A stretch of DNA of 64,000 nucleotides from Acidobacteriota bacterium (GTDB lineage Bacteria; Acidobacteriota; Vicinamibacteria; Vicinamibacterales; CAVVIG01). Positions 13,947-59,883 of this stretch are shown piece by piece. Each line of letters opens with the position of its first letter. The stretch's first letter is position 1. The notes beneath the pieces are model-generated. The model did not search any database, was not told the origin of the DNA, and saw only the letters and a program-made list of their open reading frames with translations. The translations under genes and the position numbers were made by a program. The stretch lies in the NCBI GenBank assembly GCA_018268955.1, contig JAFDVO010000008.1, positions 22,988 through 86,987 on the forward strand, given 5' to 3'.

Positions 13947-13984
13947 CCGGAGGCCTCCGGCGGAGAGTTATATCATTTGCGGGA

Positions 13985-16831
13985 ATGCCCGCATCGTTCG
14001 CGCTGCCCGCGGCCTTCTTTCTCTCAGGCGCCGCAGGGCTCATGTTCCAGGTGGTCTGGCTCTATCGCTGCGGCCTCGTCCTCGGGAGCAGCCTCCCGGC
14101 TGTCACGGTCGTCCTCTCTGCGTTCATGGCCGGGGTTGGCGCAGGCAGCGCCGCGGCTGCGCGCGCCGGCGATCGGGTTGCGCATCCCATCCGTGCGTAC
14201 ATCACGCTCGAACTCCTGGTCGCCATCACAGGCATCGCCGTCAGCGTGTTGCTGCCGCACGTCGGGGCAGTCGTGGGTCGCGTGACTCACCTGACGACTT
14301 CCGCGGCGACCCTCAATGCAGCACGGCTGGCCATCGCGTTCGGGTTGCTCATCGTGCCAGCGGGCGCCATGGGAGCGACGTTGCCGCTGCTCGTTTCCGT
14401 GCTGGCGAAGCGGGGAGCGGCGTTCGGTCCCGCACTGGGTCGGCTCTACGGTTGGAACACGCTCGGGGCGGTGGTCGGCGTGATCGGTGCAGAAGTCCTC
14501 TTCATCGGCGCGGCTGGTGTGACCGGCACGGCGTGCGCCGCCGCAGGCCTCAACCTGTGCGCGGCTTTGCTCGCAGGTTCGATTCGATCGGCTGACGCCG
14601 ACGAGATCCCGAACGCGGGACACCAGCAGGACGAGCAGCGTGCTGGCACGCCGCAGGACCGCGGCGCGGTCCGCTGGTTGCTCCTGTCCACTGCCGTCGC
14701 CGGTGGCGCGCTGCTCGGGCTCGAGGTGGTCTGGTTCCGCTTCCTGTCGATGTACGTGCTCGTCACCACGCTCGCCACGAGCGTGATGCTGGCAGCCGTA
14801 CTCTCCGGCATCGGCGTTGGCGGCATCGTCGGCGCAATCTGGCTCGGTCGTGGACGCAACGCCGCGACGTGGTTGGCAGTGCTGGCCTGCGCGACCGGGC
14901 TCAGTGTGATCGGCTCGTTCACCTTGTTCAGCTTCGTCACCCAGGGCACGCAAGTCGGCGCATGGACCAGCGTCCTGTGGTTCGCGTGCGAGCTGACCGT
15001 GATCACGTCGCTGCTTTCCGGAGCGTTGTTCACGCTGACCGGCGACGCGCTGCACCGAACCGGGCTTGGCGCTGCCGAGGCGACCGGCTCACTGGCTCTT
15101 GCGAACACACTCGGCGCCATCGTCGGTCCCGCGCTGGCCACATGGGTGCTGCTGCCCAACCTTGGGATCAAGGGGAGCATCACCACCTTCGCACTCGCCT
15201 ACGGCATCGTCGGCGCACTCGCCGCGCTGGGCCTTCGCGTCCGGCGCGCTCCCATCGCCATGCGCCGCGTTCCGTCACTGGTGATGGGCGCCGTGCTGGC
15301 TGTCGGTGTGGCACTCCTTCCGCTCGGCGCAGCAGACTCGGCGTATTTCCTGCGCGCCGCTGCTGCGTATGCGGACGATGGTTCCGAGGTCGTGGCGACG
15401 CGCGAGGGCACTGCCGAGACGCTGTTCGTCATGCAGCAGCGGTGGCTCGGTCGGCCCGTGTACAGCCGTCTGGTCACGAACGGCTTTTCGATGTCCGGCA
15501 CCGCCCTGCAGGGGCAGCGGTACATGCGTGGGTTCGCATACTACCCGATGCTCTTTCACGACGGTCCTCTCCGGAATGCGTTGGTCGTCTGCTACGGCGT
15601 TGGGGTGACCGTCGGCGCCGTCACGCACATCCCGTCGGTCGAAACCATCGATGTGGTCGAGATCTCACGCGAGATACCGGAGCTGAGCGACGTGATCTAC
15701 GAGGCCGGTTCGCGCCCGCTCGAGGACCCGCGCGTACGCCTCCATACGGAAGACGGCCGCTTCTTCCTGCAGACCACCGCCGACGCGTTCGACCTCATCA
15801 CCGGTGAGCCGCCGCCGCCTCGCACGCCAGGGACGGTGAACATCTACACGCGCGAGTACTTCGAGCTGGTGCGGAGCCGCCTGCGCGAAGGAGGCATCGC
15901 CACCTACTGGGTGCCGGTGGCTCGCCCCAACCCGGGCACGGACGTCAACACGATCGTCAAGGCGTTCTGTGACGTGTTCAGCGACTGCTCGCTGTGGAAT
16001 GCGACGCCATTCGACCTGATGCTGGTCGGTTCGCGTGGCACGACAGGGCCGAGGTCGCTTGCGGACCTCTCCCGGCCCTGGCAGACACCGGGGCTCGAGG
16101 CGCGGCTGCGGGAAGTGGCCTTGGAGCGGCCGGAGCAGATCGGCGCGACGTTCATCGGGGATGCCGCGTACCTGAAGACCCTCACCCAGGAGACGCCGCC
16201 GCTGGTAGACGACTTCCCGCAGCGTCTGCGTCCGCACCCTGGACGTCCGTCGCTGTCGGATCCGGGTTACGGCCGCGATCAGGCGGTCACGACGATGTAC
16301 GACTCGGTGCTGAGCGTGGAGCGGGCGCGCACGGCGTTCTCGACCTCGGCGTTCGTGCGGGGGCTGTTTCCGCCCGACCTCATCGAGCGGTCGCTGCCGT
16401 ACTTCGAGCAGCAGCGGATCATCAACCGCGTCTACTGGGAAGGCGGCCAGCCGCTGCGCCAGATCGAGGACCTCGACGGCGTGTTGTCCGGCACGACCCT
16501 TCGCACGCTGCCGTTGTGGATCCTCGGGAGCGACGAGGTGAAGCAGCGCATCGCGGAAACCACGCGCGACGATGTGAGTGGTGCGGTGGAATATGCCCGC
16601 GCGCTGCGTGCGTTGTCAGGACGGGACTTCGCCGGCGCCTCACGCTGGCTGTCGGTGGCACTCGAGCGCGGATTCACCGGCCCCACGGCCAGCCCACTGC
16701 TGGCCTACGCGTCGATGAAGAGCGGCAACACGGTGCTCGCGCAGCAGCTTGCCGCAGCCGCGCACGCCTCTTCAGACGACGAACGGCACTTCTGGGCGTG
16801 GATGGGGAAGGCGTTGGACGGCAGACGTTAG
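13985..16831 (+). CDS. Fused MFS-like membrane domain / spermidine-synthase-like domain protein with a helical-repeat C-terminal region
   Basis: Lies in ORF 13874-16831. ATG 13985 gives MPASFALPAAFFLSGAAGLMFQVVWLYR, typical of this fused family by recall. About 12 helices are followed by a methyltransferase-fold region (VVCYGVGVTVGA...DLITGEPPPP). Confidence 0.8.
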   Translation: MPASFALPAAFFLSGAAGLMFQVVWLYRCGLVLGSSLPAVTVVLSAFMAGVGAGSAAAARAGDRVAHPIRAYITLELLVAITGIAVSVLLPHVGAVVGRVTHLTTSAATLNAARLAIAFGLLIVPAGAMGATLPLLVSVLAKRGAAFGPALGRLYGWNTLGAVVGVIGAEVLFIGAAGVTGTACAAAGLNLCAALLAGSIRSADADEIPNAGHQQDEQRAGTPQDRGAVRWLLLSTAVAGGALLGLEVVWFRFLSMYVLVTTLATSVMLAAVLSGIGVGGIVGAIWLGRGRNAATWLAVLACATGLSVIGSFTLFSFVTQGTQVGAWTSVLWFACELTVITSLLSGALFTLTGDALHRTGLGAAEATGSLALANTLGAIVGPALATWVLLPNLGIKGSITTFALAYGIVGALAALGLRVRRAPIAMRRVPSLVMGAVLAVGVALLPLGAADSAYFLRAAAAYADDGSEVVATREGTAETLFVMQQRWLGRPVYSRLVTNGFSMSGTALQGQRYMRGFAYYPMLFHDGPLRNALVVCYGVGVTVGAVTHIPSVETIDVVEISREIPELSDVIYEAGSRPLEDPRVRLHTEDGRFFLQTTADAFDLITGEPPPPRTPGTVNIYTREYFELVRSRLREGGIATYWVPVARPNPGTDVNTIVKAFCDVFSDCSLWNATPFDLMLVGSRGTTGPRSLADLSRPWQTPGLEARLREVALERPEQIGATFIGDAAYLKTLTQETPPLVDDFPQRLRPHPGRPSLSDPGYGRDQAVTTMYDSVLSVERARTAFSTSAFVRGLFPPDLIERSLPYFEQQRIINRVYWEGGQPLRQIEDLDGVLSGTTLRTLPLWILGSDEVKQRIAETTRDDVSGAVEYARALRALSGRDFAGASRWLSVALERGFTGPTASPLLAYASMKSGNTVLAQQLAAAAHASSDDERHFWAWMGKALDGRR

Positions 16832-16879
16832 ACGTTGGACGTTAGAACTTAGAACTCAGAAGTCAGAATGCAGAACGTC
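16824..16879. repeat. In-phase heptamer run beginning inside the last codons of the upstream gene
   Basis: Units are gacgtta gacgttg gacgtta gaactta gaactca gaagtca gaatgca gaacgtc. The gene stop TAG is at 16829-16831, and a second in-frame TAG at 16850. A weaker periodic tail extends to about 16928. Confidence 0.75.
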
Positions 16880-17011
16880 GGTGGGTCAGTCAGTCCCGCC
16901 CGCCTTGCCCGCCCAGCCTGCCCTTTCAGGACCACTCGCTGTCTTCGCGTGTCCGTGACCTCCGTGGTAGTGCCGTTGGCCGCGATTGCGGCGCGACCCG
17001 CGCGATCCGTC

Positions 17012-17095
17012 CAGAGCCCAGAGCCCCGAGCCCGCAGCCCAAAGCCCGCAGCCCAAAGCCTATGGCCCATGGCCCAGCGCCCACCGCCCATTGCC
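17012..17095. repeat. Twelve in-phase heptamers, NNNNGCC on plus and GGCNNNG in the sense of the peroxidase gene
   Basis: Units are cagagcc cagagcc ccgagcc cgcagcc caaagcc cgcagcc caaagcc tatggcc catggcc cagcgcc caccgcc cattgcc. The array ends 11 nt from the stop codon at 17107-17109. Confidence 0.85.
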
Positions 17096-17106
17096 CTCGA
17101 CGGGTG

Positions 17107-18034: not shown

Positions 18035-18285
18035 GGCTCCAGGCTCCGGACTTCGGGCTCCGGTCGTTGTCGGCTGCGGGCAAGGATCGGCAGGCAGGGG
18101 GAGGGCGGGGCAGGCAGGCGGTCAGGGCTGGTGGGGCTGGTGGGGCTGGTGGGACTGATGCGGGCTTCAGGCTCCAGACCTCGGGCTTCAGGCCGGTCGG
18201 CTTCAGGCCGGACACCACGAGTGTCGCAGCCGGAAGCCGACAAGGCCGAGAGCCTGTAGCCTGGAGCCCAGAGCCTGAAGTTCGG
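18035..18285. repeat. Composite array: heptamers, three perfect 9-mers, then inverted GGCTTCA/TGAAGCC arms
   Basis: Heptamers from 18035: ggctcca ggctccg gacttcg ggctccg. GGCTGGTGG occurs three times at 18126-18152. Then gggcttcaggctccagacctcgggcttcaggccggtcggcttcaggccgg faces ccggaagccgacaaggccgagagcctgtagcctggagcccagagcctgaag. Confidence 0.7.
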
Positions 18286-23164: not shown

Positions 23165-23812
23165 CTACGGACGTGCGGACGTGACCGGCGCCTGGCAGTC
23201 GCGATCCCGGTTGACGCGAATGGGCCACCAGCGATCGAAGCCGTTCTCGGTGGCGCCGATCACCAGCACCGGCGAGATCAGCGCCGGGTCGTACTCGCCG
23301 ATGCCGGCCTGCTCCGGATGCTCGGGGATCAGGCTGACCCGCAACTGGTTGAACCCGGCCGACTCGAACGGCACGAAGTACAGGTCGGCTCGTCCCTCGG
23401 CGCCGTCCACCGTCTGGTGCGCCAGGCAGACCGGCTCGAACGCCTTGCCGCCGTCGAGCGCCGCATCCGCTGCCATGCGGTGGATCGAGTCCACGCCAAA
23501 GGCGCCCTGCAGCGCCTCATCGAATTCCGAGCGCAGGACGAGCGGGATTGCCGGGTGTGCAGGGGCGACGAGCGCGGCGCCCGCCCGCCTGGATACCTCG
23601 GCAAACAGCGAGGCGGTCAGCGTGTCCGGCGGCTTCACCGCGACAATCCACGGGTCGGTCCCATCACTCGTCACGAGCGTCCACCGCTCCGGCACCGTGG
23701 GTGCCACCTGCACCGGTGTCGAATCGACGCGATGGGTCACGTACCACGCGAGTGCGCCCCCGATGACGACGAGCAGCAGCAGGATGGGCAGGGCACGGCG
23801 CGCCAGGGACAT
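23165..23812 (-). CDS. Hypothetical membrane-anchored protein
   Basis: 215-aa ORF with one N-terminal helix (ALPILLLLVVIGGALAWYV). No family recognised. Confidence 0.6.
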   Translation of the reverse strand: MSLARRALPILLLLVVIGGALAWYVTHRVDSTPVQVAPTVPERWTLVTSDGTDPWIVAVKPPDTLTASLFAEVSRRAGAALVAPAHPAIPLVLRSEFDEALQGAFGVDSIHRMAADAALDGGKAFEPVCLAHQTVDGAEGRADLYFVPFESAGFNQLRVSLIPEHPEQAGIGEYDPALISPVLVIGATENGFDRWWPIRVNRDRDCQAPVTSARP

Positions 23813-23836: not shown

Positions 23837-23948
23837 GAAATGCAGAAATGCACAAATGCAGAAATGCACAGGTGCAGAAACGCACAGACGCAGAAGCGCA
23901 CAGACGCAGAAACGCACGACCGCTGAAGTGCACACATGCGGAAGCGCC
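23837..23948. repeat. Fourteen in-phase octamers (GAAAYGCA/CAnAYGCA), alternating with a 16-nt super-period
   Basis: Units are gaaatgca gaaatgca caaatgca gaaatgca caggtgca gaaacgca cagacgca gaagcgca cagacgca gaaacgca cgaccgct gaagtgca cacatgcg gaagcgcc. Confidence 0.85.
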
Positions 23949-23976
23949 CGGCCCCGGAGACGATGGCGGAGACGCT

Positions 23977-24075
23977 GGAATGCAGGAAGGATGGAGGGGG
24001 AGATTGGAGGGTGGAGGTTGGGGTTGGAGTGGGGAACACCGGCTCCCTGCCCCGACCTCAGACCTCCGTCCTCTG
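23977..24075. repeat. G-rich TGGAGGN heptamers facing a C-rich partner (GACCTCN)
   Basis: G-rich side: ggaatgc aggaagg atggagg gggagat tggaggg tggaggt tggggtt ggagtgg. C-rich side: ccctgccccgacctcagacctccgtcctctgcc. The two sides are imperfectly complementary. Confidence 0.65.
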
Positions 24076-24096: not shown

Positions 24097-24300
24097 CTAC
24101 TTCTTGATCTTCTCGCCGATGTCCTCGATGAACTCACCGGCCTTGCGACGGCCGCGGCCGATCGCATCCTGCGTGTCACCGGCGGCTTCATCGGCAATGC
24201 CTTCGTTCTTCATCCGCTCGTTGTCCGTCAGATCGCCCGCGGCCTGCTTCATCTTGCCCTTGAGCGCCTGTGCCTTGCCTTCCATCTCATCGCGGTTCAT
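24097..24300 (-). CDS. CsbD-family general stress protein
   Basis: 67 aa: MNRDEMEGKAQALKGKMKQAAGDLTDNERMKNEGIADEAAGDTQDAIGRGRRKAGEFIEDIGEKIKK. This is the typical CsbD pattern. GGAGGGG lies upstream. Confidence 0.9.
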   Translation of the reverse strand: MNRDEMEGKAQALKGKMKQAAGDLTDNERMKNEGIADEAAGDTQDAIGRGRRKAGEFIEDIGEKIKK

Positions 24301-29444: not shown

Positions 29445-29645
29445 AACGCAGGAACGCAAGAACGCAGAAACGCAAAAACGCAGGAACGCAGGAACGCAGG
29501 AACGCAACGCAAGAACGCAGGAACGCAAGAACGCAAGACAGCGCGCTGGAAGATTCACGCAGTCACGCACGAGCGATTGCAGCATTCGTGCGCTCCTGTG
29601 AGCGTGCATTGTTGCATTCCTGCATTCCCGCATTCCCGCATTCCC
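29445..29645. repeat. ~200-nt imperfect palindromic element whose arms are octamer arrays
   Basis: Left arm 29445-29538 has twelve units of AACGCARR/ACGCARGA. A central bulged hairpin lies around 29556-29604. Right arm 29606-29645 has five units of GCATTCCY, whose reverse complement (RGGAATGC) matches the left unit at 6-7 of 8 positions. The element fills the gap between convergent stops at 29428 and 29651. Confidence 0.85.
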
Positions 29646-32804: not shown

Positions 32805-34361
32805 ATGCGGAGACTCATTCAGCTCGCCTCCACGACCACAGTGGCGATTGTCGGCGCCTGTGGAGTCCATGTGTTCACGCAGGGCACCACGTCCACGCTT
32901 GCGGATTGCACCGTTGCGAGCCTGCAGGCGAAGGCGCCGGCGGGGACGACGATCACGGGTGCGAAGGTGGTCGACGGTTCCGATCGAGTGCCGCGGCATT
33001 GCCAGGTGGATGGGCATGCTGCGACTCCTGGCAATGAGGTCAACTTCCGGCTTGGCTTCCCCGAGCGCTGGAACGGCAAGTACTACTTCGTAGGCGTCGG
33101 CGGCCTCGGCGGCAGCATCGGCTCACTGAACAAGGGGCTCGAGCGCGGCTACGCATCCGCATCCACCGATACCGGACACAGCGCGGACGATCAGAGCTGG
33201 GGCTCGAACCGCGCGAAGGAAATTGATTACGGCCATCGCGGGACGCACGCGACCGCCGTGGCGGGGAAGGCGCTCGCAGGCGCGTTCTACGGGCGCGCGC
33301 CGCAGCACGCCTATTTCGAAGGCTGCTCCAACGGCGGCCGGCAGGCGCTCATGGAAGTGCAGCGCTATCCGGAGGATTTCGACGGGATCATCGGCGGCGA
33401 TCCTGCCACCGGCACCCCGATGCAGGTGGGACGGGTGCTCGTCTATCAGAAGATGCTCGCGAAGCCTGAGAACTTCCTGCCCGCAGAGAAGATCGAGCTG
33501 CTCTCGAAGGCGACGCTGGCCGCGTGCGACAAGGCGGACGGCCTCAAGGATGGACTCGTCACCGATCCGCGTCGGTGCTCGTTCAAGCCCGAGTCGCTGA
33601 AGTGCAGCGGGGCCGATGGACCGAACTGCCTGAACGACGGACAGCTCGCAGTCGTGAAACAGATTTACGAGGGAGCCTCCATCAACGGCGAACCGTACGC
33701 GTGGGGGTTCCCGGTCGGGCACGAGGGCAGTGCCACGGGGTGGCGCGCGTGGATCTCGGGTCCGGAGGATCCGACGACGCAGGCGGACGGCACGCTCGCC
33801 TATACGGGGCGGCGGCTGCCGAGCGGGTACGGGCTCGCCGAGTCCAACATGCGATTCCTCGCGTTGGAGAACGACGATCCGGCTTTCAACTGGCGTGTCT
33901 TCAGGTTCCCGCAGGATCTCGCCCGGATGAAGACCATGAGCGACATCCTCAGCCCGCTCGATCCCGATCTGCGTCCGTTCAAGAACCGCGGCGGGAAGCT
34001 GCTCCTGTACCACGGATGGTCGGATCCGGCGATCAGCGCGTACGGGACCGTCGGCTATTACGACCGCGTGCTGAAGACCGTCGGCGGCCAGCAGCAGATG
34101 GACGTGTTCGCGAAGCTGTATCTCGTCCCTGGCATGCATCACTGCAGTGGCGGCCCAGGCCCGAACGAGTTCGACATGCTCACCGCTCTGGAGAACTGGG
34201 TGGAGAAGGGGCAGTCGCCGGGACCGGTGGTCGCCACACACCGCGAGAACAACGCGGTCACCCGCACGCGGCCGCTGTGTCCGCATCCGCAGGTCGCCCG
34301 CTACAGGGGGACGGGGAGCATCGATGACGCCGCGAACTTCACGTGCGAGGTGCCGCGGTAG
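32805..34361 (+). CDS. Tannase/feruloyl-esterase family alpha/beta hydrolase, secreted
   Basis: Lies in ORF 32700-34361; ATG 32805 gives MRRLIQLASTTTVAIVGACG. Nucleophile motif FEGCSNGGRQALMEVQRYPEDFDGIIGGDPA. Confidence 0.85.
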   Translation: MRRLIQLASTTTVAIVGACGVHVFTQGTTSTLADCTVASLQAKAPAGTTITGAKVVDGSDRVPRHCQVDGHAATPGNEVNFRLGFPERWNGKYYFVGVGGLGGSIGSLNKGLERGYASASTDTGHSADDQSWGSNRAKEIDYGHRGTHATAVAGKALAGAFYGRAPQHAYFEGCSNGGRQALMEVQRYPEDFDGIIGGDPATGTPMQVGRVLVYQKMLAKPENFLPAEKIELLSKATLAACDKADGLKDGLVTDPRRCSFKPESLKCSGADGPNCLNDGQLAVVKQIYEGASINGEPYAWGFPVGHEGSATGWRAWISGPEDPTTQADGTLAYTGRRLPSGYGLAESNMRFLALENDDPAFNWRVFRFPQDLARMKTMSDILSPLDPDLRPFKNRGGKLLLYHGWSDPAISAYGTVGYYDRVLKTVGGQQQMDVFAKLYLVPGMHHCSGGPGPNEFDMLTALENWVEKGQSPGPVVATHRENNAVTRTRPLCPHPQVARYRGTGSIDDAANFTCEVPR

Positions 34362-34452
34362 GGCGGAGGGCAGAGGTCAGGTCGGAGGTTGGAGGTCGGA
34401 GGTTGGGCCCAGAGCCCGGAGGCTGAAGCCCGGAGCCCGAAATCTCCAGGTT
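34362..34452. repeat. Thirteen in-phase heptamers starting at the first base after the stop codon
   Basis: Units are ggcggag ggcagag gtcaggt cggaggt tggaggt cggaggt tgggccc agagccc ggaggct gaagccc ggagccc gaaatct ccaggtt. The first half is GGAGGTY in the sense of the plus gene. The second half reads GGGCTYC in the sense of the minus-strand tRNA. Confidence 0.8.
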
Positions 34453-34464
34453 CTTGCGTGCTGA

Positions 34465-34553
34465 TGGTGCCGGAGGTGGGAATCGAACCCACACGAGGAG
34501 TAAACCTCACGGGATTTTGAGTCCCGCGCGTCTGCCAGTTTCACCACTCCGGC
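34465..34553 (-). tRNA. tRNA-Leu (anticodon CAA), with long variable arm and encoded CCA
   Basis: The reverse complement is GCCGGAGTGGTGAAACTGGCAGACGCGCGGGACTCAAAATCCCGTGAGGTTTACTCCTCGTGTGGGTTCGATTCCCACCTCCGGCACCA. The acceptor stem pairs GCCGGAG with CTCCGGC, the anticodon loop is CTCAAAA, the T-loop is GGTTCGATTCC, and the extra arm is class II. Confidence 0.95.
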
Positions 34554-39615: not shown

Positions 39616-39660
39616 GGCCCGGATATTAGCACGGGGTTTTGCTACAATCTGGCGTCGCTT

Positions 39661-53442: not shown

Positions 53443-54180
53443 ATGCCGCCGGTCCTCCTGTCCGTCGTGATTCCCGCCTACAACGAGGAGCGTCGCCTCG
53501 GCGCCACGCTCGTCACGGTCGCGGAGTACCTGCGAGAACAGCCCTGGGACTGGGAAATCCGTGTCGTCGACGACGGATCGGCCGATGGCACCGTGCGCGT
53601 TGCGGAGGCCGCAGCCTCGCAAGAGGGGAGGATTGTCGTCCAGCGTGAGCCTCACCGGGGAAAGGGCGGGGCCGTGAAGGCGGGACTGATGGCAGCACGG
53701 GGTGAGTTCAGGTTCATCTGCGATGCCGACCTCTCGATGCCGATCGCCGAGATCGCTCGATTCCTGCCCCCCGAGGCGCCCCCTTTCGACGTGGCAATCG
53801 GATCGCGGGAAGGGCTGCGCGCCAGGCGCGTGGGCGAGCCCGCCTACCGGCACATTGCGGGGCGCGCGTTCAACCTCGGGGTTCAGTGGCTCGTGCTGCC
53901 AGGGATCGAGGACTCACAGTGTGGGTTCAAGATGTTCACGGCAGCAGCCGTGAAGTCGATCTTCCCCCGTGTCACTGTGGATGGTTGGGCCTTCGATGTC
54001 GAGGTGCTCGCGATCGCCCGCGCCCAGAAGCTCCGCATCGTCGAACTGCCGATCGAGTGGCACTACCGCGCCGAGTCGCGCCTGAACATGCTCCGCGATG
54101 GATGGCAGATGCTGAAGGAACTGCTGCGGATCCGATTGAGGTCGATGCGAGGACGATACCGTTCCGAGGTTGGAAGCTAG
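53443..54180 (+). CDS. Family 2 glycosyltransferase (polyprenyl-phosphate glucosyl/hexosyl synthase-like)
   Basis: Contains LSVVIPAYNEERRLG, VDDGSADGT and ICDADLS. Confidence 0.85.
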   Translation: MPPVLLSVVIPAYNEERRLGATLVTVAEYLREQPWDWEIRVVDDGSADGTVRVAEAAASQEGRIVVQREPHRGKGGAVKAGLMAARGEFRFICDADLSMPIAEIARFLPPEAPPFDVAIGSREGLRARRVGEPAYRHIAGRAFNLGVQWLVLPGIEDSQCGFKMFTAAAVKSIFPRVTVDGWAFDVEVLAIARAQKLRIVELPIEWHYRAESRLNMLRDGWQMLKELLRIRLRSMRGRYRSEVGS

Positions 54181-54361
54181 AACTCAGAAGTCAGAACTGG
54201 GCCCGCATCGGTTCCAAGGCTCAGCCCGTCCGCCCAACCCCAACGCCCCAACCTCCAACCTCCAACCTCCAACCTCCAACCTCCAACCTCCACCCTCCAA
54301 CCTCCGACCTCCAACCTCCGACCTCCAACCTCCGACCTCCGACGTTCGTGCGCTGACCTCT
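54180..54361. repeat. 26-unit single-phase heptamer lattice (GAAnTCA drifting to AACCTCC/GACCTCC)
   Basis: Begins at the last base of stop TAG 54178-54180: gaactca gaagtca gaactgg gcccgca tcggttc caaggct cagcccg tccgccc aacccca acgcccc. Then come aacctcc x5, accctcc, and aacctcc/gacctcc alternating x7. It ends gacgttc gtgcgct gacctct. Confidence 0.9.
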
Positions 54362-57841: not shown

Positions 57842-58516
57842 TCAGTGGATGTAAGGGATGAGACGCCAGCGGACGACCCTTCGGTACTCGAGGTAGCGAT
57901 TGCCGCACTGCGACGTCAGGCCCGCTTCTTCGAAGGGCATCGCTATCAGGAGGTAGGCGGTCGTGACCGTGGCGAACAGGAGCCGGTCGCCGGTCATCAC
58001 CGGCGTGCCGAAGAAGATGAGCACCCAGCCCGAGTAGAGCGGGTGGCGGACGAACCGGTATGGCCCGTCATGCTGCAGCACGTCGGTCGGCTTCGGCTCG
58101 GCGAGTCCGGCCAGTTCGCTGACGCTGATCTTCCTGACGCACAGGATGCTGAGTGCGATGCCGGCCACCTGCGCCGAGAGCAGCAGCACGTGCATGGCGC
58201 CAGACGCGTGATACACATCGACACCGATGGGGACCCAGAGCCAGGTCACCGCCATCAGCAGCAGGCTGGCCACCCACACATAGGCGCTCCGTACGAGATC
58301 GGCAGGCACCCACTTTGTCACCCACCGCTTCGCAGCAGGGCGCGCGAGCAGGCTGTGGTGCAGGGCGAACACCGTCAGCAGCCCAGTGTCTGCCGACGCC
58401 GCGCGCAGGGCGTGCCCGCCGCTCGTGACGTCCGACAGGTGCATCCACCACCAGCCGACACGCACGACGGCTGCCACGAATAGCACGAGCCCGATGCGTT
58501 TGATTGCCGGCTTCAT
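57842..58516 (-). CDS. ICMT/PEMT-like membrane methyltransferase family protein
   Basis: Lies in ORF 57842-58519 (TTG); ATG 58516 preferred (MKPAIKRIGLVLFVAAVV). Motif RHPLYSGWVLIFFG. Multi-helix. Confidence 0.7.
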   Translation of the reverse strand: MKPAIKRIGLVLFVAAVVRVGWWWMHLSDVTSGGHALRAASADTGLLTVFALHHSLLARPAAKRWVTKWVPADLVRSAYVWVASLLLMAVTWLWVPIGVDVYHASGAMHVLLLSAQVAGIALSILCVRKISVSELAGLAEPKPTDVLQHDGPYRFVRHPLYSGWVLIFFGTPVMTGDRLLFATVTTAYLLIAMPFEEAGLTSQCGNRYLEYRRVVRWRLIPYIH

Positions 58517-58588
58517 CAATTCACCAACTCACCAATTCACCAACTCACGAATTCACCAACTCACCAACTCACCAATTCACCAATTCCC
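58517..58588. repeat. Nine in-phase octamers CAAYTCAC abutting a start codon in a divergent 5'/5' spacer
   Basis: Units are caattcac caactcac caattcac caactcac gaattcac caactcac caactcac caattcac caattccc. On the minus strand the last unit reads GGTGAATTG immediately before ATG 58516. Confidence 0.9.
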
Positions 58589-58623
58589 TGTGCTCGGTCA
58601 CCTGATGCTATAACCAGCCTGTC

Positions 58624-59883
58624 GTGGATCGGGTCGTCATTTCAGGAATCGGAGTCGTCTCGCCATTCGGTGTGGGTCGGGAGACCTTCTGGACGCACAT
58701 CAGTCGGGGCGACAGTGGTGCGCGCATCCTGGATGACCTGGACCCCTCAATCCCCTGTCGCGTTGCCGCGCCCGTCCTTGGCGTGACCACGGACGACGTG
58801 CCAAGGATCGAGGGAGAAGATACGTGGGATCCCGCCCACCGGGCCGACCCGAAGCGCTACAGCCGAGCCGCGCTCATCGCGGTGATTGCTGCGCGTGAAG
58901 CCTGGAACGATGCCGGCTTGCGGGCGAGCGAGGAGAACGCCGCGGTGATCATCGGGAGCGGCGGAGGCGGGATTGACGTGGGGGAGAAGCAGTACTACGA
59001 CTTCTTCGTCGAGCGCGGACGCAAGGTGACCCCCTACGCGATCCCGATCTCGATCGTTGGCATGATGTCGAGCGAGGTCTCCATCTCGCTCCGGCTGCAC
59101 GGCTTCAGCCACGTGCTGTCCTGCGGCTGCACCAGTTCGACCGATGCCATCGGGTATGCGGTGGCGGCTATCCGCTCTGGTGAAGCGGACATCGTGCTGT
59201 CCGGAGGGGCGGACGCCTGTGTGACGCCGGGGATGCTGTACGGGTTCTCCCGCATGCGCGCGGTATCGGTGGGGCACAACGACACGCCGCACGCCGCCTC
59301 CCGTCCCTTCGACAAGGCACGCGACGGGTTCGTGCTGGGAGAGGGCGCCTGGATGCTGGTCCTCGAGCGCGAGGACCATGCGCGAGCACGCGGTGCAACG
59401 GTCTACGCCTCGATCGACGGCTATGCGTCGACGTGCGACGCCTACCACCGCGTCCAGATGGCTCCCGACGGCGTGCAGATCGTCCGTGCCATGGCGAAGG
59501 CCATCGAGAAGTCGGGCCGTGCCCGCGATGCGATCGGCTACGTCAACTTCCATGGCACATCCACGGTGCTGAACGATGCGATTGAGTCGCGATGCGTGCG
59601 CGAGCTGTTCGGCACGCGCGCCGACCACATCGCCGGGTCCTCCGTGAAGTCGATGATCGGGCACCCCCAGGGCGCAAGCGGCGCCGCGGGGATCGTGACC
59701 ACCGCGCTCGCGATGCAGCGCGGCTTCCTGCCACCGACGATCAACCAGCGGGAGCCGGATCCGTCGTGCGATCTCGATTACGTCCCGAACGTCGGTCGTG
59801 AGGCGCAGGTCGAGGCCGCCCTGTGCAACTGCCTCGGCTTCGGCTCCAAGAACAGCGCCATCGTCATGGGTGCGGGGCGTTAG
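58624..59883 (+). CDS. Beta-ketoacyl synthase, KAS-II (FabF)-like, divergent and outside a fab operon
   Basis: GTG start. Cys-His-His triad context: LSCGCTSSTDAIGYA, CDAYHRVQMAP and NFHGTSTVLND. Also KSMIGHPQGASGAAG. Confidence 0.8.
   Translation: MDRVVISGIGVVSPFGVGRETFWTHISRGDSGARILDDLDPSIPCRVAAPVLGVTTDDVPRIEGEDTWDPAHRADPKRYSRAALIAVIAAREAWNDAGLRASEENAAVIIGSGGGGIDVGEKQYYDFFVERGRKVTPYAIPISIVGMMSSEVSISLRLHGFSHVLSCGCTSSTDAIGYAVAAIRSGEADIVLSGGADACVTPGMLYGFSRMRAVSVGHNDTPHAASRPFDKARDGFVLGEGAWMLVLEREDHARARGATVYASIDGYASTCDAYHRVQMAPDGVQIVRAMAKAIEKSGRARDAIGYVNFHGTSTVLNDAIESRCVRELFGTRADHIAGSSVKSMIGHPQGASGAAGIVTTALAMQRGFLPPTINQREPDPSCDLDYVPNVGREAQVEAALCNCLGFGSKNSAIVMGAGR

Follow-up and report, generated by a model that had tools for sequence, protein, structure and literature searches.

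Nine tandem octamers occupy the spacer between two divergent genes in the window, a 64,000-nt stretch of contig JAFDVO010000008.1 from a member of the Vicinamibacteria (Acidobacteriota). One gene encodes an ICMT/PEMT-like membrane methyltransferase (hereafter, the ICMT-like gene) and the other a beta-ketoacyl-ACP synthase (KAS). We read the octamer array, with a probability of roughly 0.6, as a local slippage expansion of the ICMT-like initiation region that now provides this gene with a leader and ribosome-binding site beside an ancient TATA box shared by the pair. In many Vicinamibacteria this single TATA box appears to serve both genes, each transcribed away from it as a leaderless mRNA. 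Slippage in the lineage of the window would have expanded 8 nt of the ICMT-like initiation region (GGTGA, RTTG and GTG/ATG), inserting distance between the ICMT-like start and the box and leaving the KAS promoter and start untouched. The ICMT-like mRNA would begin at about 58598, from the hexamer TAGCAT (58610->58605), and the array would form its roughly 82-nt unstructured leader, with the last unit as the ribosome-binding site and the others as redundant copies (Shine-Dalgarno (SD)-like motifs, GUG/UUG codons and UGA in three frames). Copy number would alter only the leader length and the upstream DNA distance from the KAS promoter, so that any effect of copy number would be quantitative and not on/off.

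The octamer array is real and far beyond chance. On the forward strand it reads CAATTCAC CAACTCAC CAATTCAC CAACTCAC GAATTCAC CAACTCAC CAACTCAC CAATTCAC CAATTCCC (58517-58588), the reverse complement of which matches exactly the text given in an initial annotation of this DNA, and it abuts ATG 58516 of the ICMT-like gene, as had been described. Tandem Repeats Finder (TRF) returned 9.4 copies of period 8 at 58512-58586 (86% matches, score 108) and, over the same interval, 4.6 copies of a period-16 super-period (89% matches, score 120). Since this span reaches 58512, the 8-nt periodicity extends 5 nt into the ICMT-like coding region and includes the start codon (TTCAT-CAA). The two-unit pattern CAAYTCACCAAYTCAC, with up to two mismatches allowed, has eight overlapping matches in the window, every one inside the array; shuffled controls gave a mean of 0.08 matches, and none of 100 shuffles reached eight. 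The tract is imperfect, with four unit variants among the nine units and two alternating unit types. The statement that every unit carries GTG and TTG holds for most units, but the distal unit GGGAATTG lacks GTG and the unit GTGAATTC lacks TTG. The array accounts for 72 nt of the 107-nt spacer between ATG 58516 and GTG 58624, and thus for most of the region upstream of KAS, as noted before.

The N-terminus of the ICMT-like protein, aligned with homologues (alignment A1), is conserved from residue 1, with G9 and F13 invariant, and ATG 58516 is therefore the true start. A downstream start, called in variant strains to give a protein of 211 aa, was rejected because the first 13 residues are conserved and the variant has GTG in place of ATG. 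In these strains (L021 and L223) the GTG brings the partial tenth unit closer to the unit sequence (GTGAAGCC versus GTGAATTG). An in-frame TTG is present at 58519, and the final UGA of the array overlaps the start codon as UGAUG. The last unit does supply an SD-like GGTGA 4 nt before the ATG, as first proposed; its predicted duplex with the anti-SD tail amounts to -10.4 kcal/mol, the fifth strongest of 39 genes, calculated with a generic 16S 3' tail that may differ from that of the host. It is plausible from the sequence, and from parallels in other members of the octamer family described below, that the array is the source of the ribosome-binding site of the ICMT-like gene.

There are no TA dinucleotides within the array on either strand, and the only two in the 107-nt spacer are those of the TATA box. 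There can therefore be no -10 hexamer of the form TAnnnT between the box and the ATG, and the ICMT-like mRNA most likely carries the array as its leader; a promoter for this gene inside the array was rejected on the same ground. The composition bears equally on the view that the array is untranscribed neutral filler, with the ICMT-like promoter elsewhere and expanded junk confined to the spacer by selection on the flanking signals. Arrays of this kind do occupy whole spacers right up to stop and start codons, their copy number and unit sequence vary between relatives, and neither RNA structure nor an Rfam match was found. A promoter between array and ATG is, however, impossible, as the two abut, and any sigma-70-type ICMT-like promoter must lie beyond the TA-free array, which would therefore be transcribed. 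We regard the filler explanation as highly unlikely.

The presumed leader contains eight GGUGA motifs, and its GUG and UUG codons open mini-ORFs (open reading frames) of 3-4 codons that are closed by UGA in every frame. Read in the minus-strand sense the array has TGA in all three frames, and in the plus-strand sense it is open in all three. Folding of both strands gave no significant structure (z = -0.94 and +1.17, of which -0.94 refers to the leader in the ICMT-like sense), and a riboswitch or attenuator was rejected on the absence of RNA structure. An Rfam scan of the whole 64-kb window returned a tRNA at 34468-34553 as its sole match. By inspection of the sequence, a G-quadruplex on the G-rich strand is unlikely, as GG runs of two only are present. 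The length of the leader may have a graded effect on expression.

The TATA box beyond the array can be read as a -10 region in both directions. In the KAS sense it presents TG-n-TATAAC (58609-58614) followed by 9 nt and the GTG start codon, and in the ICMT-like sense TAGCAT; the two hexamers overlap at 58605-58614 as a near-symmetrical TA-rich element, probably a -10 of the bidirectional type. The KAS start has no SD (anti-SD tail duplex of -1.8 kcal/mol), and with its GTG 9 nt downstream of the -10-like hexamer the KAS mRNA is probably leaderless or nearly so. Relative to KAS the array spans roughly -33 to -105, and the KAS core promoter is wholly outside it. The unique 17-nt linker separating array and box holds the sequence TCACC(T/A)GAT, similar to a single repeat unit and conserved in relatives. 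The hexamer TAGCAT also stands 6-8 nt ahead of two other start codons in the window, and TAnnnT is found 6-9 nt before the starts of long ORFs at 13971, 28710, 32791 and 35746 on the plus strand and at 39628, 23824 and 18021 on the minus strand. Leaderless initiation, predicted for about 13% of genes in Acidobacteria (PMC3160421), seems, from these matches and the rarity of SD-like motifs, to be common in this genome.

Both the gene pair and the box are conserved. The divergent ICMT-like/KAS arrangement is syntenic in 71 of 80 related Vicinamibacteria loci, and a TA-rich box (TAGTATAG, TATTATAG, TACTATAG or TGCTATAA) is located a few nucleotides ahead of the KAS start in nearly all of 67 loci; boxes of the TAGTATAG or TATTATAG type have hexamers readable on both strands. 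At 23 of the 67 loci the predicted ICMT-like and KAS start codons flank the box so closely that just 13-30 nt separate them; the calls of the ICMT-like start are approximate. Examples of such compact pairs are CAT-GCGCTTAGTATAGGGGCC-ATG in L052 and L077 and CAC-GCCTCTATTATAGGAAGC-ATG in L096. In L052 TAnnnT occurs on both strands (TAGTAT and TATACT), 6-7 nt from each start codon. From this layout the pair seems to consist of two leaderless genes, back to back, with one bidirectional -10 element as their promoter, and the spacing of the starts would fit divergent transcription start sites about 18 bp apart if both mRNAs were leaderless. Bidirectional promoters built on -10 symmetry have been described (Warman 2021, as summarised in PMC10268837; also PMC12825309). 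From these accounts, the likeness lies in the single TA-rich box, the divergent starts of relatives 13-30 nt apart and the TAnnnT hexamers of relatives, which can be read on either strand at about 6-7 nt from each start. The present case differs from what those summaries describe in that it is predicted from sequence conservation, in that both products would be leaderless, and in that the array in the window has pushed one gene 92 nt from the box.

Closely spaced divergent starts around a single TAGTATAG- or TATTATAG-type box are also seen in L035 and L047. Two further loci, L061 (3904-3966) and L068 (3810-3856), show the mirror image of the window, with the box beside the ICMT-like start and a period-8 array between box and KAS; the units are TGGTGATC x8 in L061, complementary to the generic anti-SD GAUCACC, and GGTTCACG x5 in L068.

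The closest relatives, with about 60% identity in the ICMT-like protein, have two to four degenerate copies of the octamer at the same place. The spacer of L022 reads CGATTCGC CAACTTGC CAATTCAC CAACTGCC, and that of L024 reads CTTCAC CAGCTCAC CAGTTCAC CAGATGCTATAAC, with a GTG start codon in phase with the units. The start-codon region of the variant strain, GTGAAGCC, is itself a decayed unit. The simplest history would be that slippage duplicated an initiation region of the form GGTGA-N4-GTG in tandem and that, in the lineage of the window, the copies increased to nine. Period-8 arrays with other units are present, independently, in the ICMT-like/KAS spacer of other lineages. Relatives of intermediate identity (85-97%) were not found in the databases, where the ICMT-like homologues jump from 97% to 60% and those of KAS from 100% to 84%.

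Several points weigh against the leader interpretation. Neither -10 candidate has the full consensus; TATAAC lacks the T at -7, and a simple scan of 58400-58720 for sigma-70 promoters and terminators found no match; the rule demands the hexamer-final T, and for TATAAC, which is without it, the scan is uninformative. The ICMT-like promoter could sit within the KAS coding region. Most genes here are without an SD (SD-like motifs precede only about 8 of 40 predicted starts in the window), and GGTGA may accordingly not matter for initiation. The ICMT-like start calls in relatives are approximate. Two independent haplotypes both have nine units, which could reflect a constraint on length and a function of the whole array. 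Lastly, local slippage explains the growth of an array but not the arrival of one and the same octamer at over 100 unlinked loci, a distribution that hints at some seeding mechanism or at selection on the motif.

The initial annotation envisaged that changes in unit number would shift promoter and ribosome-binding-site geometry for both genes, as in a classic phase-variable set-up. The anatomy does not support this. Because the array is built of equivalent units and adjoins the ATG directly, GGTGA remains 4 nt from the start codon at any copy number, and the KAS promoter is unaffected because the conserved TATA box lies outside the array, 9 nt before the GTG. Contingency repeats are near-perfect tracts placed in a reading frame or where they set the spacing of -35 and -10 elements or of the ribosome-binding site; here the tract has four unit variants and 86% TRF matches, lies outside both ORFs, and has the -10 box 17 nt beyond it.

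Strain comparisons bear on the same question. The nine-unit array is byte-identical in eight spanning assemblies from at least seven samples, namely an NCBI metagenome-assembled genome (MAG; GCA_046331445.1, contig JAXLQY010000005.1), ERZ27282906, ERZ27282941, ERZ27282986, ERZ27286469, ERZ27268179, and JGI 3300006092 and 3300009870. A second strain, L223 (ERZ27282907), is 99.7% identical to the window over 10.9 kb and also has nine units, in the order T C G A C C T T T' as against T C T C G C C T T' in the window (T, CAATTCAC; C, CAACTCAC; G, GAATTCAC; A, CAACACAC; T', CAATTCCC). The array is thus polymorphic between strains at the level of units, and the marker unit GAATTCAC is two units nearer the start codon in L021 and L223 than in the window. 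A tract of 232 nt (58337-58568), comprising the N-terminal third of the ICMT-like gene and the left two-thirds of the array, contains 26 of the 31 differences between the window and L223 over the length compared, including a compensated 3-nt insertion/deletion pair; it looks like an imported recombination tract ending inside the array, or a local hypervariable region. Two partial contigs, L224 and L225, end in CAACTCAC CAACTCAC CAATTCCC, which corresponds either to one unit fewer or to two substitutions. Among the eight spanning assemblies and L223, no sign was seen of the rapidly changing lengths that a contingency locus should show.

Frequent slippage altering expression of the ICMT-like gene, the KAS operon or both, as a phase-variable or tunable contingency locus, consequently appears quite unlikely to us. 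A tandem repeat in a 5' regulatory region, a unit arrangement that differs between strains and the possible loss of a unit in L224 and L225 would all suit such a locus, and the 7-bp repeats in the 5' untranslated region (UTR) of Haemophilus influenzae hmw provide a precedent (PMC12721329). The copies are, however, imperfect and of two alternating types; the array is neither within an ORF nor between -35 and -10 elements, and leaves the ribosome-binding-site spacing and the KAS core promoter independent of copy number; it is conserved among the assemblies; and the variant strain has retained nine units through changes that point to recombination rather than slippage. The CCAACCT x15 array (54234-54340) has likewise kept its length in the same strain pair, with two substitutions only. 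The host, moreover, is a free-living soil or sediment bacterium, and octamer arrays are found mainly at the 3' ends of genes. The proposed phase switch is replaced by the more ordinary reading of an expanded repeat as a 5' leader beside a conserved promoter.

A set of short-k Logan contigs (L003, L004, L006, L008-L010, L015, L017, L018 and L020) break off inside the array and, giving partial haplotypes only, were rejected as evidence of unit number. Such arrays fragment the metagenome assemblies of the lineage and can hide length variants.

The array is not peculiar to this locus, as the initial annotation had implied, and is a copy of a dispersed family as well as an example of a clade-wide class of 7-9-nt arrays. 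A metagenome scan for three consecutive units (TCACCAAYTCACCAAYTCACCAAYTCAC) returned at least 120 contigs with varied gene contexts, a recurrence of the unit typical of long-unit simple sequence repeats (SSRs). Of these, 80 were fetched, and 69 have a GC content of at least 0.58 and 3-13 units. In 36 of the 69, the array ends within about 20 nt of a stop codon, the gene reading it as (GTGARTTG)n, and in 10 it is 2-45 nt upstream of a start codon on the same strand. A few members offer parallels to the window: in L134 the last unit forms the SD (GGTGAATCAG-ATG) ahead of a protein with a twin-arginine translocation (Tat) signal, in L163 and L174 translation would begin at the GTG that the last unit contains, and in L127 the array is upstream of a leaderless-type promoter (TAGAAT, 7 nt, ATG). 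An inverted arm is present in 33 of the 69 contigs, always in the order 5'-(TTGGTGAR)n...(YTCACCAA)n-3' and never the reverse (33 to 0). The first arm of these pairs, which in most cases starts at a stop codon, contains TGA in each of the three frames, and the second arm is open in all three. Contigs L104, L106, L115, L142 and L153 (among L103-L182) illustrate the arm order. No run of inverted units was found within 150 nt on either side of the window array, and a REP-like (repetitive extragenic palindromic) hairpin or terminator was rejected for this copy as there is no inverted partner nearby. No second CAAYTCAC array was seen within the 64 kb. The window copy is atypical of the family only in its 5'/5' position and in the absence of the inverted arm.

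Conceivably the octamer arrays, together with their sister 7-9-nt families in Vicinamibacteria, are no mutational debris and form selected and actively seeded intergenic punctuation, in which case the single-arm array of the window would be a multi-SD leader for ribosome loading or as a decoy, with its length, nine units in both haplotypes, under selection; we hold this to be improbable. On this account one arm may combine UGA in all three frames with SD-like GGUGA and GUG/UUG starts, the complementary arm may offer open frames and an anti-SD-like UCACC, and the two may pair only in the fixed order 5'-(UUGGUGAR)n...(YUCACCAA)n-3'.

Another possibility, which we also judge unlikely, is that the octamers are iterated recognition sites, bound cooperatively as DNA or RNA by a protein (a regulator, a nucleoid protein or one resembling S1, Csp or CsrA) that controls the gene pair and the other family loci. 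It would account for the octamer at more than 100 unlinked loci, the 33 to 0 orientation of the inverted arms and the nine units kept in both resolved haplotypes, all of which hint at constraint, and it agrees with a similar proposal for TAACTGA repeats next to start codons (PMC4679880). In independent lineages (L033, L036, L038, L039 and L061) the same spacer moreover contains arrays of period 8 whose core, T(G/C)ACCA, is related; the arrays of L033, L036, L038, L039 and L089 are inverted pairs of TGGTCATY and GATGACCA. No candidate binding protein has been identified, however, and a spacing of 8 bp is out of helical phase. Unit sequence varies freely from genome to genome and, within a genome, from locus to locus, which suits a mutational process better than a dedicated binder, and arrays are no commoner in the ICMT-like/KAS spacer, where about 10 of 70 lineages have one, than in the adjacent 3' spacer after KAS (about 14 of 70).

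Table 1. Positions of the array, its flanking signals and genes, and further short-period arrays in the window.
Feature	Position	Strand	Remarks
Octamer array, nine tandem units	58517..58588		CAAYTCAC on the + strand; GTGARTTG in the sense of the ICMT-like gene
Partial tenth unit holding the start codon (ATG 58516-58514)	58512..58516	-	TRF extension and strain variants
SD-like GGTGA from the last unit	58521..58525 (58525->58521)	-	4 nt upstream of ATG 58516
ICMT/PEMT-like membrane methyltransferase gene, 224 aa	57842..58516	-	Pfam PF04191/PF04140
Unique 17-nt linker TGTGCTCGGTCACCTGA between array and TATA box	58589..58605		Compared with L022, L024, L033, L037 and L051
TATA box TGCTATAAC, predicted bidirectional -10 region	58606..58614	both	Conserved beside the KAS start in relatives
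KAS gene, 419 aa	58624..59883	+	Start codon GTG 58624
Arrays of period 7-9, examples	16812-17096, 18125-18166, 23837-24029, 29445-29645, 34360-34403, 54234-54340		TRF

The window array is an instance of two nested sets, the dispersed octamer family and the clade-wide 7-9-nt intergenic tandem arrays. It fits the class of long-unit intergenic SSRs, which have head-to-tail units of 6-9 nt in about four copies or more (here 9.4), and does not fit those of contingency SSRs, of REP-like hairpins (for the window copy) or of Rfam families. Heptameric SSRs are over-represented in many bacteria, and those of Xanthomonas (GGGAATC) and Nostoc (GGGGATT) have been studied (PMC4692102); TAACTGA repeats are known from Beggiatoaceae and cyanobacteria, and in Beggiatoaceae stand next to start codons (PMC4679880). 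The arrays described here resemble these and the short tandemly repeated repetitive (STRR) heptamers of cyanobacteria in their imperfect copies of 7-9-nt units, in the many arrays per genome drawn from a small unit vocabulary, and in an almost exclusively intergenic location close to the ends of ORFs. Some are inverted pairs, some lie within a few nucleotides of starts where canonical SDs are rare, and arrays at conserved positions differ in length and sequence from one related genome to the next. They differ in the host phylum (Acidobacteriota, class Vicinamibacteria), in that the unit is an octamer that is unlikely to form G-quadruplexes and, in the window, carries SD-like GGUGA, GUG/UUG codons and UGA in three frames, and in the strict arm order of the octamer inverted pairs. 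No description of such arrays in Vicinamibacteria or Acidobacteria was found in the literature searched.

The hif TA repeats are a phase-variable promoter SSR of host-adapted bacteria. With the 7-bp repeats of H. influenzae hmw1A/hmw2A (PMC12721329) the window array shares a short tandem repeat in a regulatory region, in its case that of a divergent pair, whose copy number could in principle change the length of the 5'-UTR. Unlike hmw and hif, it is imperfect, is uniform in length in the eight assemblies, belongs to an environmental host and a family located mostly at gene 3' ends, and leaves the -35/-10 spacing and the reading frame alone.

REP elements and bacterial interspersed mosaic elements (BIMEs) are extragenic palindromes. 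The octamer family resembles them in forming hairpins just past stop codons, often between convergent genes; its hairpin arms are, in contrast, tandem octamer arrays of variable length, and the window array has a single arm and is positioned at two 5' ends.

The more noteworthy by-products of the analysis are the order-wide, apparently bidirectional and leaderless ICMT-like/KAS promoter and the strict arm order of the octamer hairpins. Vicinamibacteria, which are abundant in soil but scarcely cultured, seem to be a further lineage in which long-unit intergenic repeats abound, in dispersed unit families and with a strict order of hairpin arms. They also seem to rely on compact leaderless gene pairs, back to back, with one TATA box as promoter. 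For this group both features have consequences for gene calling, the prediction of start codons and the assembly of metagenomes, and provide natural test cases for the spread of repeats and their possible role in translation.

In the window, ten merged arrays of period 7-9 were found in 64 kb, all in spacers of a gene map based on GC content at third codon positions (GC3), and related MAG loci carry arrays too: many of 81 related Vicinamibacteria loci do so, at 0.1-0.9 per kb and with differing units. Besides the ICMT-like/KAS spacer, no fewer than 7 spacers of the window contain similar 7-9-nt arrays. Most of the window arrays begin at or near a stop codon, and several consist of inverted pairs predicted to form long hairpins (z = -1.9 and -1.6). 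The unit vocabulary is small and re-used, with AGGTTGG/CCAACCT at three places and GAAACGCA-like units at three. On the gene map the octamer array is indeed the only one in a 5'/5' spacer, as the initial annotation stated, the others being in 3'/3' or 3'/5' spacers; the array at 23837-23916 is also directly upstream of the -10 box of a gene, though not in a 5'/5' spacer.

Homologues of the ICMT-like protein are named Ste14 or methanethiol S-methyltransferase by JGI; some of the homologues P0019, P0021 and P0028 have the latter name (MddA-type). Homologues carry the annotation Vicinamibacterales, phylum Acidobacteriota. KAS heads a cluster continuing with an FAD-binding oxidoreductase, a second ICMT-family protein and a PIG-V-like glycosyltransferase, followed by a PhzF-family gene. 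The conserved pairing of the ICMT-like gene with the KAS, FAD-oxidoreductase, ICMT and PIG-V-like cluster may indicate a function in lipid or membrane modification.

The 3'/5' spacer at 23837-24073 contains about ten units of (GAAACGCA)n abutting the TAGCAT -10 box of the gene at 23165-23812 (minus strand). A small CsbD-like gene (24097-24300, minus strand) adjoins the same spacer, and immediately past its stop codon an AGGTTGG/CCGACCT inverted pair folds into a hairpin (-48 kcal/mol, z = -1.9). At 29445-29645, (AACGCAGG)x12 starts 17 nt past a stop codon and pairs with (TGCATTCC)x5 about 70 nt downstream in a hairpin about 200 nt long (-82.7 kcal/mol, z = -1.6). The convergent spacer at 54179-54340 has AGAACTC-type heptamers followed by CCAACCT x15, and its units recur at 16844 and, reverse-complemented, at 23988 and 34360. 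The tRNA gene at 34468-34553 (minus strand) adjoins heptamer arrays at 34360-34439.

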